14,292 nucleotides of DNA from Anaerolineae bacterium (GTDB lineage Bacteria; Chloroflexota; Anaerolineae; DUEN01), in the NCBI GenBank assembly GCA_034433615.1, contig DAOUAJ010000382.1:1-14292 (forward strand). Reading direction: 5' to 3'. A model generated the notes under the pieces. That model was not told the origin of the DNA, made no database searches, and saw only the letters and a program-made list of their open reading frames with translations. The first letter of the stretch is position 1. Every line of letters starts with the position of its first letter. Positions 5,284 to 10,864 of this stretch are shown here, in pieces. The translations under genes were made by a program, and so were the position numbers.

Positions 5284-5868
5284 TCACCCTTCGCCCACCT
5301 GATGGGCCAGAATGATGGCCCAGGCGACCTCCTTCATAGGTTTACGGTTGTTCATGGACATCTTCTGAATTTTACGGAACGCCTCGGCCTCCGACAGCCC
5401 CTGGCGGTCCATGAGGATGCCTTTGGCACGATCCACTAACTTGCGCGTCTCCAGCGCCTCTTGCAGATCGTCTACCTGCTTTTGCATCTCCATGAACTCA
5501 CGAAAGCGGGCCAAAGCTACCTCGATAGCAGGAGCCAGGTCGGTCTCCCGGATTGGCTTCACCAAGTAGCCGGTCACACCAGCCTCGCGCGCGCGCGCCA
5601 CCAGGTCGTGCTGACTATAGGCGCTGAGCAGCAACACCGGAGCGATGCGCTCCTCCGTCAGAATCTTAGCCGCCTCGATGCCGTCCATATCAGGCATCTT
5701 GATGTCCATGATCACGATATCCGGCTTGAGCTCTCTGGCCAGATTCACGGCACTGCGTCCGTCGCCGACCTCCCCCACGACCAGGTAACCCAGGTTGGTT
5801 AACATCTCCCGTAGATCCAATCGGATCAATGCCTCATCGTCGGCAATCACGACCCGAGTCTTTTCCAC
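5284..5868 (-). CDS. ANTAR-domain response regulator (receiver plus ANTAR RNA-binding output; PdtaR/AmiR/NasT-like)
   Basis: Receiver motifs: VVIADDEALIRLDL, IVIMDIKMPDMDGIEAAK, VTGYLVKP. The C-terminus QEALETRKLVDRAKGILMDRQGLSEAEAFRKIQKMSMNNRKPMKEVAWAI is a typical ANTAR helix bundle. The SD GGGAGG lies 9 nt upstream of ATG 5868, 6 nt after the kinase stop. Confidence 0.85.
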   Translation of the reverse strand: MEKTRVVIADDEALIRLDLREMLTNLGYLVVGEVGDGRSAVNLARELKPDIVIMDIKMPDMDGIEAAKILTEERIAPVLLLSAYSQHDLVARAREAGVTGYLVKPIRETDLAPAIEVALARFREFMEMQKQVDDLQEALETRKLVDRAKGILMDRQGLSEAEAFRKIQKMSMNNRKPMKEVAWAIILAHQVGEG

Positions 5869-5874
5869 GGCTTA

Positions 5875-7452
5875 TCACCCTCCCAAAGGCAATTTTGGAA
5901 AAGAGACCTCAGCGACAACGCCATCCTTCTGATACAAAGAGAAGGTCCCTTTGAGATCGTCTCGAACCAAGGTTTGCACAATCTGCAGGCCCAAAGTTCG
6001 AGCCTGCTCCAACGAGAATCCCTCCGGCAGGCCGTGTCCATTGTCCACGATGCGGATCACGACCCTGTTCGCGATGTTGGTCAGATCGGCCTGAATGTGC
6101 CCCTCTTCCTCGCCATCAAATCCATGTTCCAGGGCGTTCAGGAGCAATTCGTTAAAAACCAGCGCGCAGGCAGTGGCCTGATCTTTGTGCAGATAAATGC
6201 TAGGGCCCCTCAACTCAATGCGGATGCGACAACCCGGCGCTAAAGTGACTTGCTCGGTCTGGCTGATGATGCGCTGAAACACGTCACGAATGTTGATGTG
6301 CTGCCCTCTGTCATGGGATAGATAATCATGGATGACGGCTACACTCAGGATGCGATTAATGGCCTCTTCCAGTTCGTGGCGGGCCTCCTCCGTCTGACAT
6401 CGCCTGGATTGCATACGCAGCACCGAAGCGATGTTTTGCAAGTTGTTCTTCACCCGATGATGAACTTCCTGCACCATCGCCCGTTGCACGTTCAGCTCTT
6501 GCTGCCTGTGCCGCGCTTCCGTGTCATCATGCACCAGGATCAATGCGCCCGCTTGGCGTCGGTAATTCGCCCGTCGGGATAGACGGTCACCGATGGCCGC
6601 AGGCAGCGGCCACGGAGGATCATAACGCAGCAGCGGGATCACCTGGCGAATCCAGTAGCGAGTTTGCTCTTCCCCTTCCCATTGCTGGCATAGCCCGGTT
6701 CGCAGCGCCGTGGCTACCAGCTCGTCGTCCCGAGTCTGCAGATCGCCTATCCACTTGCCGCGGAGATCTTCTAAATAACCCAGGTGACGGTACAGGTGGG
6801 TGGCAATCCCGCTTAGATAAGTGATGCGTCGTTGTAAGTCGGTGACGACGATCCCATCCCATTCGCCGAATGGTCCTAAAGCTTTTGCACCCCGCAGATC
6901 ACCCCGTATAGCCATCTGTTGAACCCAAGAAAGGGCCCGCTGGAAGACGCGAGAACGGCGGCGGTGACGCTCTCGTTCGATCAGGTTGGTCTCGATGGCT
7001 AACGCGGCAATGATCTGGCCGCGAGGGCCATAGATGGGGTAGACTTCTTGAATGACAGGGGCATCGCCCTCGACCACTCGTTGATGGTGGCCAGATACCC
7101 CATCGTTTAAAGCGCGCAAGACGAGAGGTTCGTCCGCCTGCTTGACTGTTTGCCCCAGCAACGAGTTGGGATGGAGGGGAGAGATAGAACGCGGCTGTGC
7201 CTGGGCGATGATAGCTGCCGAACGAGCGTTCAGGCGGCCGTAGAGAAGCACATCCGCCCGGCTGACTCCGGCCGTGATCGCCAAACCATCCTCCACCTGC
7301 TGGAGAAACTGAAGATCCGCATCACTCAAGCCCTGACAGCTTTTGACGATCGGGTGCATATGAGTCCATAGGCTACCAAGCCAGGCTCCCATGCCTGGGA
7401 TTCTCTTTATCAAGTGCAACATACAACAAAAGCCGACGGCATTGCAAGCCAT
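5875..7452 (-). CDS. Cytosolic sensor histidine kinase, HisKA_2 plus HATPase_c with N-terminal GAF/PAS-like sensor region (PdtaS-like). Start uncertain (7452, 7392 or 7359)
   Basis: The H-box EVHHRVKNNLQNIASVLRMQ is the HisKA_2 signature. The ATPase motifs NELLLNALEHG and DNGHGLP are present. No TM segments. The gene is immediately upstream of and cotranscribed with the ANTAR regulator. None of the three candidate ATGs has a convincing SD. Confidence 0.8.
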   Translation of the reverse strand: MACNAVGFCCMLHLIKRIPGMGAWLGSLWTHMHPIVKSCQGLSDADLQFLQQVEDGLAITAGVSRADVLLYGRLNARSAAIIAQAQPRSISPLHPNSLLGQTVKQADEPLVLRALNDGVSGHHQRVVEGDAPVIQEVYPIYGPRGQIIAALAIETNLIERERHRRRSRVFQRALSWVQQMAIRGDLRGAKALGPFGEWDGIVVTDLQRRITYLSGIATHLYRHLGYLEDLRGKWIGDLQTRDDELVATALRTGLCQQWEGEEQTRYWIRQVIPLLRYDPPWPLPAAIGDRLSRRANYRRQAGALILVHDDTEARHRQQELNVQRAMVQEVHHRVKNNLQNIASVLRMQSRRCQTEEARHELEEAINRILSVAVIHDYLSHDRGQHINIRDVFQRIISQTEQVTLAPGCRIRIELRGPSIYLHKDQATACALVFNELLLNALEHGFDGEEEGHIQADLTNIANRVVIRIVDNGHGLPEGFSLEQARTLGLQIVQTLVRDDLKGTFSLYQKDGVVAEVSFPKLPLGG

Positions 7453-7541: not shown

Positions 7542-7618
7542 TGGTCGGGGCGGGCGGATTTGAACCGCCGGCCACTTGAACCCCATTCAAGTGCGCTACC
7601 TGGCTGCGCTACGCCCCG
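7542..7618 (-). tRNA. tRNA-Pro (anticodon GGG), 77 nt including the encoded CCA
   Basis: Folded by hand: acceptor CGGGGCG/CGCCCCG (C1:G72, typical of bacterial tRNA-Pro), D-stem GCGC/GCGC, anticodon stem CTTGA/TCAAG with loop A-T-GGG-G-T (G37), T-stem GGCGG/CCGCC with T-loop TTCAAAT, discriminator A, CCA. Confidence 0.9.
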
Positions 7619-7769: not shown

Positions 7770-7807
7770 TTGACAAAATGGTTCTTTGGGGTTATACTGA
7801 GTATAAT
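7770..7807 (+). promoter_or_regulatory. Promoter P1: TTGACA (7770-7775), 17-nt spacer, TATACT (7793-7798), with a second TATAAT at 7802-7807
   Basis: Consensus -35 with exact 17-nt spacing to a 5/6 -10 element, seen directly. It sits in an AT-rich stretch upstream of the 84-codon ORF. Confidence 0.55.
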
Positions 7808-7822
7808 AGAACGGGTGTTCTA
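7807..7822. promoter_or_regulatory. Perfect 16-bp palindrome TAGAAC-GGGT-GTTCTA containing a GAAC-N4-GTTC core (Gram-positive/Chloroflexi-type LexA/DinR Cheo-box motif), overlapping the P1 -10 and transcription start region
   Basis: Seen directly. GAAC-N4-GTTC is the established LexA operator core in Bacillus-type and Chloroflexi-type SOS regulons. The symmetry extends beyond the core to a full 6-4-6 palindrome. Its position over the promoter core fits a repressor site. Confidence 0.4.
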
Positions 7823-7854: not shown

Positions 7855-7883
7855 TTGACCAACAAGGCCGTCTGTGCTAGAAT
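7855..7883 (+). promoter_or_regulatory. Promoter P2: TTGACC (7855-7860), 17-nt spacer, TGcTAGAAT extended -10 (7875-7883)
   Basis: Seen directly. A second near-consensus promoter about 80 nt upstream of the start codon. Confidence 0.5.
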
Positions 7884-7902: not shown

Positions 7903-7942
7903 GGCCCATGCGGGCCACAAGCGGCCCATGCGGGCCACAAGG
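7903..7942 (+). repeat. Two tandem 20-bp direct repeats GGCCCATGCGGGCCACAAG(c/g). Each contains a short hairpin (GGCC-CAUGCG-GGCC or GGCCC-AUGC-GGGCC) and ends 5 nt before the SD
   Basis: Seen directly. 7903-7921 and 7923-7941 are identical 19-mers. They lie in the 5' leader between P2 and the AGGAGG at 7947-7952. Confidence 0.7.
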
Positions 7943-7964
7943 TTAGAGGAGGAGAAGAGAAACT

Positions 7965-8219
7965 ATGGCCTATCGCAATAACACCGGTCTCGATATTTGG
8001 TTCAAGGATGAGATTTTGCAGACATTACGGGCAGTGGACTCAGCAAATATGGACATTGCTGGCGAGATTGATTCGCTGGAAATGCGCTTCTACCGACGCG
8101 GTTTTGAAGCAGCTATCCGCTCCGTGGCCGAGGCATTTGGCCTGGACTATCACCCTCCAGTCTCCAGGCGCCACGGCTCTCCTCCTCCTGTTGACGTGAC
8201 TTCACGCCTTATCCATTAA
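7965..8219 (+). CDS. Small hypothetical protein (84 aa, soluble, predicted helical N-terminal half, Pro-rich C-terminal tail). No recognisable family
   Basis: ATG 7965 is preceded by AGGAGGAG. It is driven by two strong promoters. No TM segment. Third-position and overall G+C are visibly lower than in flanking genes. Confidence 0.6.
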   Translation: MAYRNNTGLDIWFKDEILQTLRAVDSANMDIAGEIDSLEMRFYRRGFEAAIRSVAEAFGLDYHPPVSRRHGSPPPVDVTSRLIH

Positions 8220-8298: not shown

Positions 8299-9792
8299 CT
8301 AGGTTTCAGTCGCCTTAGTTTCTGGCGGCTCTCGGTGCTCGGACTGGACCATTGGGGGCTGGCCAATAAAGACCTGGGCGTGGGGATTTTCCATCAATTT
8401 TTCCATAGCGCTAATGTAGCGCATCCCTGCTGCGGTGTCTTCCGCGCAATGGGTCATGATCCAGCCTAGCACACGCTCGACACGTTGAGCCACGTCAGGC
8501 GGCAACTTGCGCCAGGCTTCCTCCAGGCTGTTAATGTATTCTGAGATCGCCTTCTGTCGGGCTGCCAACCGGACCTCTTCAAAGGTGCGTACTCGCTTGG
8601 CGTCCGCCTCTCCCTGGGAAATACTGAGTTGTTTCTGGCGATCAGCGATCCACACGGCCAAGACCCGATCTGCGACCTCTTCCGGCAGTGTCATCGTATT
8701 CACTGCCATCCCTATGATCTCCACACCCCATCCGCTTGTCAGCCGACGGCACTCTTCAGTCGCTTCACTTCCAATCAATTCCAGGATCGCGGCAGACGTT
8801 TCCTCAGTGATCGGGAATAGGCCCTCTAGTGTATGACGTCCGATCACACGCCGCAATGCGATCTCGGCAACACTGGTCACAGCCCGTGGCCACTCATTTG
8901 GAGCCAGCGTCACCTTTAGCATTTGTACGATGTCTTCACGGCGTGCGGGGCAGAGGCTATCTTTGATGACCCCGCTCATCTCGTCATCTCCTTCCTCACC
9001 GTCAGCCAGATCGGCTTGTGGAAACCGGTAGCCTACTGTGGCAGAGACATGAAGAAGAGAGACACCATCTGCCGTGAGTACGTCGCCTGGTTCCACTGGC
9101 AAGAACCGTGGGTTCAGCGGTACCACTCCGCGTACACGCTCAAACGGCTTCAGAGTCACGGTGCCTGGACCAACGATCCGTGTGATCTTACCACCGCGTT
9201 CGAGCACTACTGCCTGGCAAGGGCGTACCACCAGGATGCCAGGGCCTCCTAACAAGCGCAGGATGCCAGCCTTCTTCTCATCCTTGATCTCACCATCCTC
9301 CACGATGAGAAAAGGCCCTTGCAAGCCAGCGATCAAGGTTAGCAGTTGCCGCACAACTGCACTGCGACCTAAGTCGCGCAGCGGATGGGCAGCCAGTATC
9401 AGCTCACTGCTAAGGAAAGCCAGAACAAGAAGAAAGGTAACGAGCAGACTCATAGGGGTCAGGTAGCTCACTAACAGCAGGATGAAGGCCAGGGCTGCTT
9501 CCTGAATCGCCATCTCGCTGAATGGTTTGCCCAAGGAGAGGGGAATCAATGTGAGGGCTAGCCCGGTACCCGGAAATAGGATCAGCAATCCCAGGAAGGT
9601 AAATCGTCGGAAGTTCTGAGGTACGAGCAACAGGAAGCCGCTGCCCATTAATATGCTGATTATCACCAGATGGAGGAAAGCACCCGGGATGGGCACGAAA
9701 ATGGTTGCCATGCCCAACGCAATCAACACGATACCCAGAGCCAGACGAACTCCAGAGCGCTGAGGGGGCCTCACTGATAATAACGTTTCCAT
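8299..9792 (-). CDS. SPFH/band-7 (stomatin/flotillin/HflK-like) domain membrane protein with a 4-5 helix N-terminal membrane region and a C-terminal coiled-coil; 497 aa from ATG 9792
   Basis: SPFH core ILVVRPCQAVVLERGGKITRIVGPGTVTLKPFERVRGVVPLNPRFLPVEPGDVLTADGVSLLHVSATVGYRF. A coiled-coil-like stretch QGEADAKRVRTFEEVRLAARQKAISEYINSLEEAWRKL. The SD GGAGGTGA lies 4 nt upstream of ATG 9792. The track's GTG at 9816 adds 8 residues upstream of that SD. Confidence 0.85.
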   Translation of the reverse strand: METLLSVRPPQRSGVRLALGIVLIALGMATIFVPIPGAFLHLVIISILMGSGFLLLVPQNFRRFTFLGLLILFPGTGLALTLIPLSLGKPFSEMAIQEAALAFILLLVSYLTPMSLLVTFLLVLAFLSSELILAAHPLRDLGRSAVVRQLLTLIAGLQGPFLIVEDGEIKDEKKAGILRLLGGPGILVVRPCQAVVLERGGKITRIVGPGTVTLKPFERVRGVVPLNPRFLPVEPGDVLTADGVSLLHVSATVGYRFPQADLADGEEGDDEMSGVIKDSLCPARREDIVQMLKVTLAPNEWPRAVTSVAEIALRRVIGRHTLEGLFPITEETSAAILELIGSEATEECRRLTSGWGVEIIGMAVNTMTLPEEVADRVLAVWIADRQKQLSISQGEADAKRVRTFEEVRLAARQKAISEYINSLEEAWRKLPPDVAQRVERVLGWIMTHCAEDTAAGMRYISAMEKLMENPHAQVFIGQPPMVQSEHREPPETKATET

Positions 9793-9922
9793 CACTTCAC
9801 CTCCTGCAGAAGACACGAAGACCAGCTTCTAATGCGCACCCCACCTTTACGTCGCTCATCCGACATGCTAGCTTGCACAACTATATCATATTTTCTTTAT
9901 CTGGGAAAGTCTTTACCAGATT

Positions 9923-10864
9923 TTATCGAGAACGATCTTCTGGTAGAAAAGAGGCCCCCATCGCCTCCAATGCGGGGAGGCCGAACCCTTCGTAGGTGGG
10001 GATAAACAGGAAGACCTCGGCCAGCGCGTACAACGCCGGCTTGTCCTCCTCCGCGATCCAGCCGGGGAAGCGCACCCACGCCTCGATCCCGAGCTCACGG
10101 GCGAGGCGGCGAGGGTCCGGCATGAACGGGGTATCCCGAGCAGGCAAGCGGCCGGCGATGACCAGCGGCACATCACGATGTCGCCCCTGCCGCACGAGGA
10201 GGGCATACGCTGCCAGGGTGCGCTGCACGTTCTTGCGCACATCAAAGCCAGCAAAGTAGAGGATGAAACGCTGAGGAAGAGCGTAGCGCGTTCGCACCCG
10301 CTCCAGCTCCTCCACTGTGAGCGGTCGGCTATAGCGCTCGTCGGCTGCCAGGTACACTGTGTGCACCCGTTCCGGCGGGACACTCAGGTGACGGATGAGG
10401 TCCCGGCGCGAGGCCTCGGAATCGGTCAGAATCAGGTGAGCATGGCGGGCAGTGCGTGCCACCAGGGCTGTGTACAGCCGCTGTAAAAGGCCCCCGCGAT
10501 ACTCAGGCAACAGGAGCGGAATCAGGTCGTGCACGGTGACGACGAGGCGACACGGCCGCCACCACGGTGATCCCCAATAGGGCACGTGGGCTACGTCAAT
10601 GTGCAGGCGGCGGCAGGCCAGGGGGAAGGCGATCTGTTCAAACCATACCTTGGCCAGGTCCCCCTGCAGGAGGTCAAAAGGCGTAGCCGCGCACACGATT
10701 TGCCAGCCGGGTATATCAGCCACAGTCGGCACCTGCCGGGGCAATATCAGCCAACGCGCATCATCCGGCGAGACACGGGGTAGCCAGCGCACCAAGCCGT
10801 GCAAGACTTGCCCGCTGCCGGTGCCCGTCTGCCCCCAAAACCAGCCGTTTAACGCAATCCGCAT
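9923..10864 (-). CDS. GT4-family (GT-B fold) glycosyltransferase, truncated at the C-terminus. The ORF stops 4 residues after the conserved EAMA motif, so it is a probable gene remnant or pseudogene
   Basis: N-terminus MRIALNGWFWGQTGTGSGQ and C-terminus ...FIPTYEGFGLPALEAMGASFLPEDRSR* are typical of GT4. A normal GT4 continues about 70-90 aa past EAMA (xGxPVV... nucleotide-binding helices). Here the frame runs into AT-rich intergenic DNA that carries the SPFH promoter region. Confidence 0.7.
   Translation of the reverse strand: MRIALNGWFWGQTGTGSGQVLHGLVRWLPRVSPDDARWLILPRQVPTVADIPGWQIVCAATPFDLLQGDLAKVWFEQIAFPLACRRLHIDVAHVPYWGSPWWRPCRLVVTVHDLIPLLLPEYRGGLLQRLYTALVARTARHAHLILTDSEASRRDLIRHLSVPPERVHTVYLAADERYSRPLTVEELERVRTRYALPQRFILYFAGFDVRKNVQRTLAAYALLVRQGRHRDVPLVIAGRLPARDTPFMPDPRRLARELGIEAWVRFPGWIAEEDKPALYALAEVFLFIPTYEGFGLPALEAMGASFLPEDRSR

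Follow-up and report, generated by a model that had tools for sequence, protein, structure and literature searches.

On comparative sequence evidence, the palindrome upstream of a small gene in the window (the whole 14,292-nt stretch of Anaerolineae DNA analyzed here, a complete contig of an NCBI MAG) is a conserved operator for a dimeric repressor, with a conservation far beyond chance. The protein that binds it is, to judge from the motif and its distribution, most likely LexA. Promoter P1, whose start region the palindrome occupies, is probably damage-inducible, and the small gene probably represents a new damage-induced gene of Anaerolineae. The features of the window and of the related loci are collected in Table 1.

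Table 1. Positions and descriptions of the features discussed, in the window and in related loci (regulatory assignments are putative).
Feature	Locus	Position	Strand	Description
Palindromic operator TAGAAC-GGGT-GTTCTA	Window	7807..7822	.	Putative LexA (Cheo-type) box; core GAAC-N4-GTTC at 7809-7820
Promoter P1, TTGACA(7770)-17-TATACT(7798)	Window	7770..7798	+	11/12 consensus positions; putatively operator-controlled
Promoter P2, TTGACC-17-TAGAAT	Window	7855..7883	+	10/12 positions, TG extension; no operator or dyad; between palindrome and small gene
Two tandem copies of GGCCCATGCGGGCCACAAG, 5' UTR	Window	7903..7941	+	Repeat search; window-specific
Ribosome-binding site GAGGAGGAG	Window	7946..7954	+	Direct reading; 10 nt ahead of ATG 7965
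Small gene, 84 aa	Window	7965..8219	+	ORF and translation; predicted two-helix hairpin and disordered tail
SPFH/Band_7 protein gene, about 505 aa (putative start)	Window	8299..9816	-	Pfam Band_7 E = 9.8e-15; convergent with small gene
tRNA-Pro(GGG)	Window	7542-7618	-	Upstream of small gene
PdtaS (GAF-HisKA_2) kinase and PdtaR (receiver-ANTAR) regulator pair	Window	5284-7452	-	Upstream of tRNA-Pro gene
Small-gene site	L011			TAGAACATGAGTTCTA within 15+15 palindrome
Small-gene site	L012, L018, L034 (one lineage)			CGAACATATGTTCG, then two degenerate copies, 13-bp register
Small-gene site	L013, L016			TATAAT, 7 nt, GAACAAATGTTC, then ribosome-binding site
Small-gene site	L015			TTGACA-AATCA-GAACAAGTGTTC-TATAAT; within -35/-10 spacer
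Small-gene site	L022			TAGAAT-A-GAACATGTGTTC
Small-gene site	L023			TAAAAT-A-GAACGAAGGTTC
Small-gene site	L028			TAGAAT-A-GAACACGTGTTC
Small-gene site	L017, L025			Core with one mismatch
Small-gene site	L014			Degenerate site
LysM-gene site	L023	7427-7438		Exact GAACAGATGTTC, past a -10
LysM gene, 433 aa	L023	7466-8767		TM+LysM protein; heads LysM/TPR-S24 operon
TPR-S24 gene, 365-384 aa	L023	8805-9959		
TPR-S24 gene, 365-384 aa	L025	7481-8578		
TPR-S24 gene, 365-384 aa	L028	8694-9791		
TPR-S24 gene, 365-384 aa	L011	48-1007		

Direct reading of the window confirmed a perfect 6-4-6 palindrome, TAGAACGGGTGTTCTA, with exactly the sequence and coordinates given in an earlier note on this DNA. It begins 9 nt past the -10 element of P1 and hence spans roughly +2 to +17. 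The note had placed it directly on the -10 and start region; the start region holds, but the -10 element of P1 lies 9 nt upstream, and the palindrome reaches a -10 only through an overlapping TATAAT (7802-7807), a hexamer that has no proper -35. When up to two mismatches were allowed, the 16-mer TAGAAC-N4-GTTCTA occurred once in the window, compared with 0.17 occurrences expected from shuffles. The bare core is less exclusive. Contrary to the claim that no other GAAC-N4-GTTC is present in the window, exact copies were found at 2941-2952 (GAACCGCTGTTC, inside a PMT_2 glycosyltransferase gene) and at 7220-7231 (GAACGAGCGTTC, inside the PdtaS kinase gene), which shows that the eight-base core also occurs without an obvious role. 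Both intragenic copies lack the TA..TA flanks and any extended palindrome, and both are probably chance occurrences. By a hand estimate from base composition, roughly 0.2 exact cores would be expected in the 14-kb window, which holds three.

We compared loci encoding homologues of the small gene from 17 chromosomal lineages, drawn from Anaerolineae and Chloroflexi MAGs and from metagenomes, down to about 40% protein identity; those of named source are Anaerolineae or Chloroflexi MAGs. MAGs that carry the gene include GCA_034432955.1, GCA_034434335.1, GCA_040960375.1 and HGW-Chloroflexi-1 (PHCA01). Of the 17 lineages, 12 (the window, L001, L003, L008, L011, L012, L013, L015, L016, L022, L023 and L028) have the exact core ahead of the orthologous small gene, at a distance of 35-254 nt, and two more have a core with one mismatch. 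Across 139.8 kb of non-redundant loci, 15 exact cores were observed versus 1.9 expected from base composition; 12 of them lie ahead of the small gene and one ahead of a LysM-S24 operon. No site was found in L019, which has little upstream sequence, or in the 1.5-kb contig of L021, and the mobile-element copies of the gene (L024, L031) lack it as well.

In L001, L003 and L008, the closest relatives (68-71% protein identity), three islands survive in an otherwise diverged intergenic region, namely P1, the palindrome and P2. TAGAAC-N4-GTTCTA is kept in all three, with the different spacers ATGC, ATTT and ATAC, and the spacers found across sites comprise GGGT, ATGC, ATTT, ATAC, ATGA, ATAT, AAAT, AAGT, ATGT, GAAG and ACGT. 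The arms are invariably GAAC and GTTC, while spacer and flanks vary and the gene differs at about half of its codons from one lineage to another. This invariance of the arms amid drifting spacers, flanks and codons points to recognition of the DNA by a protein. The position of the site also moves, always within the RNA polymerase footprint: in L015 the -35/-10 spacer holds it, L022, L023 and L028 have it directly against the -10, and elsewhere it follows the -10 by 7-13 nt. The sites of the relatives range from the -35/-10 spacer to about +20. Constant arms, a free spacer and flanks, and a position that slides within the polymerase footprint together argue for a DNA operator of a dimeric repressor. 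In L011, a perfect 15+15 inverted repeat (1098-1131), GAGGTCGATTAGAAC-ATGA-GTTCTAATCGACCTC, encloses the operator. The lineage of L012 carries an array at 1638-1675 (identical in L018 and L034) in which CGAACATATGTTCG, GAACACAGCTTCG and TAACAGAGGTTCG follow one another in a 13-bp register, resembling the tandem arrays described for some lexA promoters.

The promoter picture proved richer than first described. P1 is a strong promoter. P2, implied in the earlier note by the numbering alone, had been given no role. Equivalents of P1, TTGACA(AA)-16/17-TAnnAT, occupy the same place in L001, L003 and L008, and promoters of the same kind were read from the upstream sequences of L011, L012, L013, L015, L016, L022, L023 and L028. 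P2 is retained as TTGACA-16-TACAAT in L001, L003 and L008 despite the divergence of its intergenic surroundings and is a probable basal promoter. Because P2 carries no operator, repression at P1 cannot silence the small gene, and LexA cannot be its sole control in the lineage of the window; most of the other lineages have one promoter only, which bears the box. The earlier proposal of a LexA-type operator on the small-gene promoter thus keeps its conserved core and its repressor geometry, but not the uniqueness of the site, and its promoter architecture was incomplete. A divergent minus-strand promoter across the palindrome, represented in the window by a weak promoter-like site (9/12 matches), was considered and rejected, as it is not conserved in the relatives.

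Several features of the leader and its upstream border were recorded as well. The GGCCCATGCGGGCCACAAG repeats are not found in the aligned relatives and appear as an insertion in the alignment; each copy holds a GGCCC/GGGCC mini-palindrome, and the pair looks like an insertion or a duplication. The region of the ribosome-binding site, AGGAGGAGAAGAG (7947-7959), is 92% complementary to CTCTCCTCCTCCT (8177-8189) in the 3'-terminal part of the small-gene ORF, which could reflect chance purine/pyrimidine tracts or a long-range occlusion of the ribosome-binding site. In L001, L003, L008 and L012, the putative ATG of the divergent gene psuG (Indigoidine_A) abuts or overlaps the -35 of P1 (junctions at L001 4763-4771, L003 1283-1291 and L008 514-522), and no minus-strand promoter for psuG was detected in the three loci scanned, L001, L003 and L008.

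We then have to ask which repressor would use this operator. In Firmicutes and Actinobacteria, LexA recognizes the motif GAAC-N4-GTTC, variants of which have been reported in Chloroflexi (PMC4951493); PMC4234289 likewise describes it as a LexA motif and accepts GTTT half-sites as LexA variants in clostridia. PMC3323433 mentions Chloroflexi in passing only. The site shares with the Cheo box or DinR box of Firmicutes and Actinobacteria (CGAAC-N4-GTTCG; extended, CGAACRNRYGTTYC) the 4-4-4 dyad core, the purine/pyrimidine pattern of the spacer, the overlap with the promoter or transcription start and, in one lineage, the tandem degenerate copies. The extended DinR consensus of B. subtilis is reportedly CGAACRNRYGTTYC, with an RNRY spacer. 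Nine of the 12 spacers fit RNRY, including GGGT of the window, compared with one in eight expected by chance, and the site of L012, L018 and L034 is exactly CGAACATATGTTCG, the B. subtilis Cheo-box consensus. The outer flanks differ: they are C and G in the Bacillus and Mycobacterium consensus but T-A/T-A in the window (TA..TA) and in most relatives, and the host here is an uncultured member of Anaerolineae, for which we infer LexA binding from sequence. Closer in phylogeny, the LexA of Dehalococcoides is said to bind exactly GAAC-N4-GTTC, its known targets being lexA and uvrA. That box belongs to the same phylum and has the same motif, although its class is Dehalococcoidia rather than Anaerolineae and its targets do not include this small gene.

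The distribution of the motif points in the same direction. L023 has just one further exact core in 20 kb, and this core follows the -10 of the operon encoding the TM+LysM and TPR-S24 proteins. In L025 and L028, the TPR-S24 gene has near-sites, GAAC-N4-GTTT, past its -10. These LysM and TPR-S24 genes may be called SOS-like by their domain content only. The spread of the motif nevertheless looks like that of a regulon-type, SOS-like factor, and since it marks several unlinked SOS-like genes while no regulator gene is conserved beside it, LexA appears to be the best explanation. When the LexA proteins of B. subtilis and E. coli and the RecA of E. coli were run by tblastn against the collected loci, neither lexA nor recA turned up, and the sole matches were the S24 domains encoded by the TPR-S24 genes. 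In a protein search with B. subtilis LexA, the best 120 of the 8000 matches were all from Bacillus, a tblastn search of plasmids with LexA gave no Chloroflexi among the 60 matches listed, and literature searches combining LexA with Anaerolineae or Chloroflexus, or TPR-S24 with SPFH, found nothing relevant.

The operator could instead be real and serve another dimeric helix-turn-helix repressor (XRE/CI-like, possibly S24-fused, or lineage-specific), with the gene standing outside the SOS response. The TA..TA flanks of the window, which differ from the canonical C..G, would fit such a protein, P2 points to a more complex control, and GAAC/GTTC dyads are within reach of other helix-turn-helix families, as in the GTTCTYT half-sites of SinR. 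However, no regulator gene is conserved beside the site, the upstream neighbors including tRNA-Pro, psuG and TPR-S24, and the TPR-S24 neighbor has no detectable DNA-binding domain. Moreover, the motif at the LysM-S24 operon and the near-sites at S24 genes fit a global factor, the match to the Cheo-box consensus is exact in one lineage, and the spacers conform to RNRY. We consider a non-LexA repressor unlikely. Far less probable is a role of the palindrome as RNA, namely as a 6-bp hairpin with which the P1 transcript would begin and which would stabilize the mRNA or modulate its translation. Such a 5'-terminal fold is predicted, and the inverted repeat reaches 15+15 nt in L011, but the fold is weak (-4.3 kcal/mol) and the arms never covary, being always GAAC/GTTC. 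The site is not transcribed in L015, where it lies within the -35/-10 spacer, and is at most partly transcribed in L022, L023 and L028, where it abuts the -10. Rfam matched only the tRNA in the window, and the leader region gave no match even at E<=1. Finally, a functionless chance occurrence beside a promoter, for which the two further exact cores in the window might speak, has a negligible probability and is effectively refuted by the comparative data, given that the 16-mer is expected only 0.17 times even with two mismatches and that the core stands at the orthologous position in 12 lineages, compared with 1.9 cores expected in 140 kb.

With these alternatives weighed, a LexA operator on P1 that would block this promoter until damage occurs, with P2 providing basal expression, is the explanation we favor, and we regard it as reasonably probable. 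In this putative mechanism, a dimeric repressor, most likely the host LexA, would recognize GAAC-N4-GTTC at P1, and the bound protein would cover the P1 transcription start (about +2 to +17) and obstruct RNA polymerase. RecA, activated upon DNA damage, would cause the self-cleavage of LexA, P1 would be freed, and the 84-aa protein would rise above the basal level set by the operator-free P2. Because P2 would sustain operator-free expression in the sub-lineage of the window, the box would act there as a booster rather than as an on/off switch.

The small gene itself is, by its pattern of substitution, a real gene under purifying selection. Over codons 1-62, it differs from its counterpart in L001 by 33 synonymous codon differences and nine amino-acid changes, and third positions hold 38 of the 49 base differences. 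A word-indexed search retrieved four close homologues of the 84-aa protein, and an exhaustive HMMER search (E<=1e-3) retrieved a family of 102 cluster representatives, mostly of 60-110 aa, with the shared core G..VWF.D.I...L.AVD.AN.D.A..I.T.EM.LYR.GFEAA.RA.A.AFG. Four large multi-stretch "homologues" (P0046, P0083, P0105 and P0094) have unrelated domains, look like spurious repeat matches and were rejected. An exact copy of the protein was found elsewhere in one 1.8-kb Logan contig only. AlphaFold2, run with a 24-sequence alignment, predicted helices at 14-32 and 38-57 arranged as a hairpin, followed by a disordered tail (mean pLDDT 78). As the earlier note supposed, the protein had no match in Pfam, NCBIfam, PHROG or PADLOC. 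Likewise, no PDB entry matched by sequence or by fold (the best Foldseek hit against PDB had E = 3.9), and tblastn gave no match in GenBank phages or PLSDB plasmids.

Small genes under a LexA box that are expressed only after damage include YneA, ChiZ, SosA, SulA, SidA and DinI. By sequence and domain content, the 84-aa protein falls outside the known small SOS effectors SulA, YneA/LysM, DinI and SidA; these differ from it in that it has neither a TM segment nor a LysM domain and is instead a soluble two-helix hairpin, as modeled, that is linked to an SPFH gene. The LysM+TM protein of L023, which has the same box, is the one that resembles YneA and ChiZ in architecture.

The most constant neighbor of the small gene is the SPFH gene. 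Their tail-to-tail pairing was found at every chromosomal locus with enough downstream sequence (the window, L001, L003, L008, L011-L017, L019, L022, L023, L025, L028 and L034), with SPFH partners of 304-537 aa and 3' ends that lie up to 79 nt apart or overlap by up to 75 nt. No intrinsic terminator was found after the small gene in the window. The convergent pairing suggests functional or antisense coupling, and antisense interference with the SPFH gene by transcription from P1 is a possibility. Our best guess is that the 84-aa protein acts as a soluble helical hairpin that modulates the SPFH membrane scaffold encoded next to it. Beyond the SPFH gene, the window has glycosyltransferase and epimerase genes.

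A second recurrent neighbor is the TPR-S24 gene, which lies directly upstream of the small gene in L011, L023 and L025-L029 (in L029 by tblastn only); the window itself encodes no such gene. The N-terminal half of its product consists of TPR repeats (LGN/Pins-like), and the C-terminal half is an S24 domain of the LexA/UmuD type that matches LexA C-terminal-domain structures and keeps the AAG cleavage motif, the G(D/K)SM serine and the TLKR lysine. The protein thus shares the AAG motif and the Ser/Lys dyad with the LexA/UmuD S24 proteins, but it has TPR repeats at the N-terminus where LexA has a winged helix-turn-helix, and a search for a DNA-binding domain in it detected none. In some lineages, the 84-aa protein may form a module with this self-cleaving protein. 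In L015, the gene for a weak homologue of the middle domain of the LysM protein (1011-1694) is divergent from the small gene. Other family members reside on mobile elements: L024 (JGI Ga0612063_01737, 10001-10252) has one in a phage-like block with DnaB_C, RecU, DNA methylase, HNH and M23 peptidase genes, and L031-L033 have them in an element with FtsK/SpoIIIE, HTH_36 and VRR_NUC genes; neither kind has the operator.

The links to SPFH, TPR-S24 and mobile elements suggest a damage-responsive module that acts on a membrane scaffold. We tentatively extend this to a Chloroflexi damage module, composed of the soluble two-helix protein and the flotillin-like SPFH protein, whose genes stand tail-to-tail and often overlap, and, in several lineages, of TPR-S24 and LysM proteins encoded ahead of them, which would all stand under GAAC-N4-GTTC control and re-wire the membrane scaffold, an idea that we consider possible but doubtful. 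Its outcome would be, for example, a cell-envelope or division checkpoint. The module could work by way of the small protein, by RecA-triggered cleavage of TPR-S24, by antisense transcription running into the SPFH gene, or by several of these routes at once.

Beyond Proteobacteria, Firmicutes and Actinobacteria, the SOS regulon is, to our knowledge, barely charted, and most Anaerolineae are uncultured. The operator described here is a known kind of site; the family that it regulates, with its SPFH and TPR-S24 context, is uncharacterized and is the more interesting part. The conserved LexA-type box provides a regulatory context for an unannotated family of about 100 sequence clusters that has no Pfam model, and links it both with an SPFH membrane scaffold and with an unusual fusion of TPR repeats with a LexA C-terminal domain. 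If confirmed, the motif would be a seed for reconstructing the SOS regulon of Anaerolineae, and the family would represent a new family of SOS effectors and a link between DNA damage and membrane organization.
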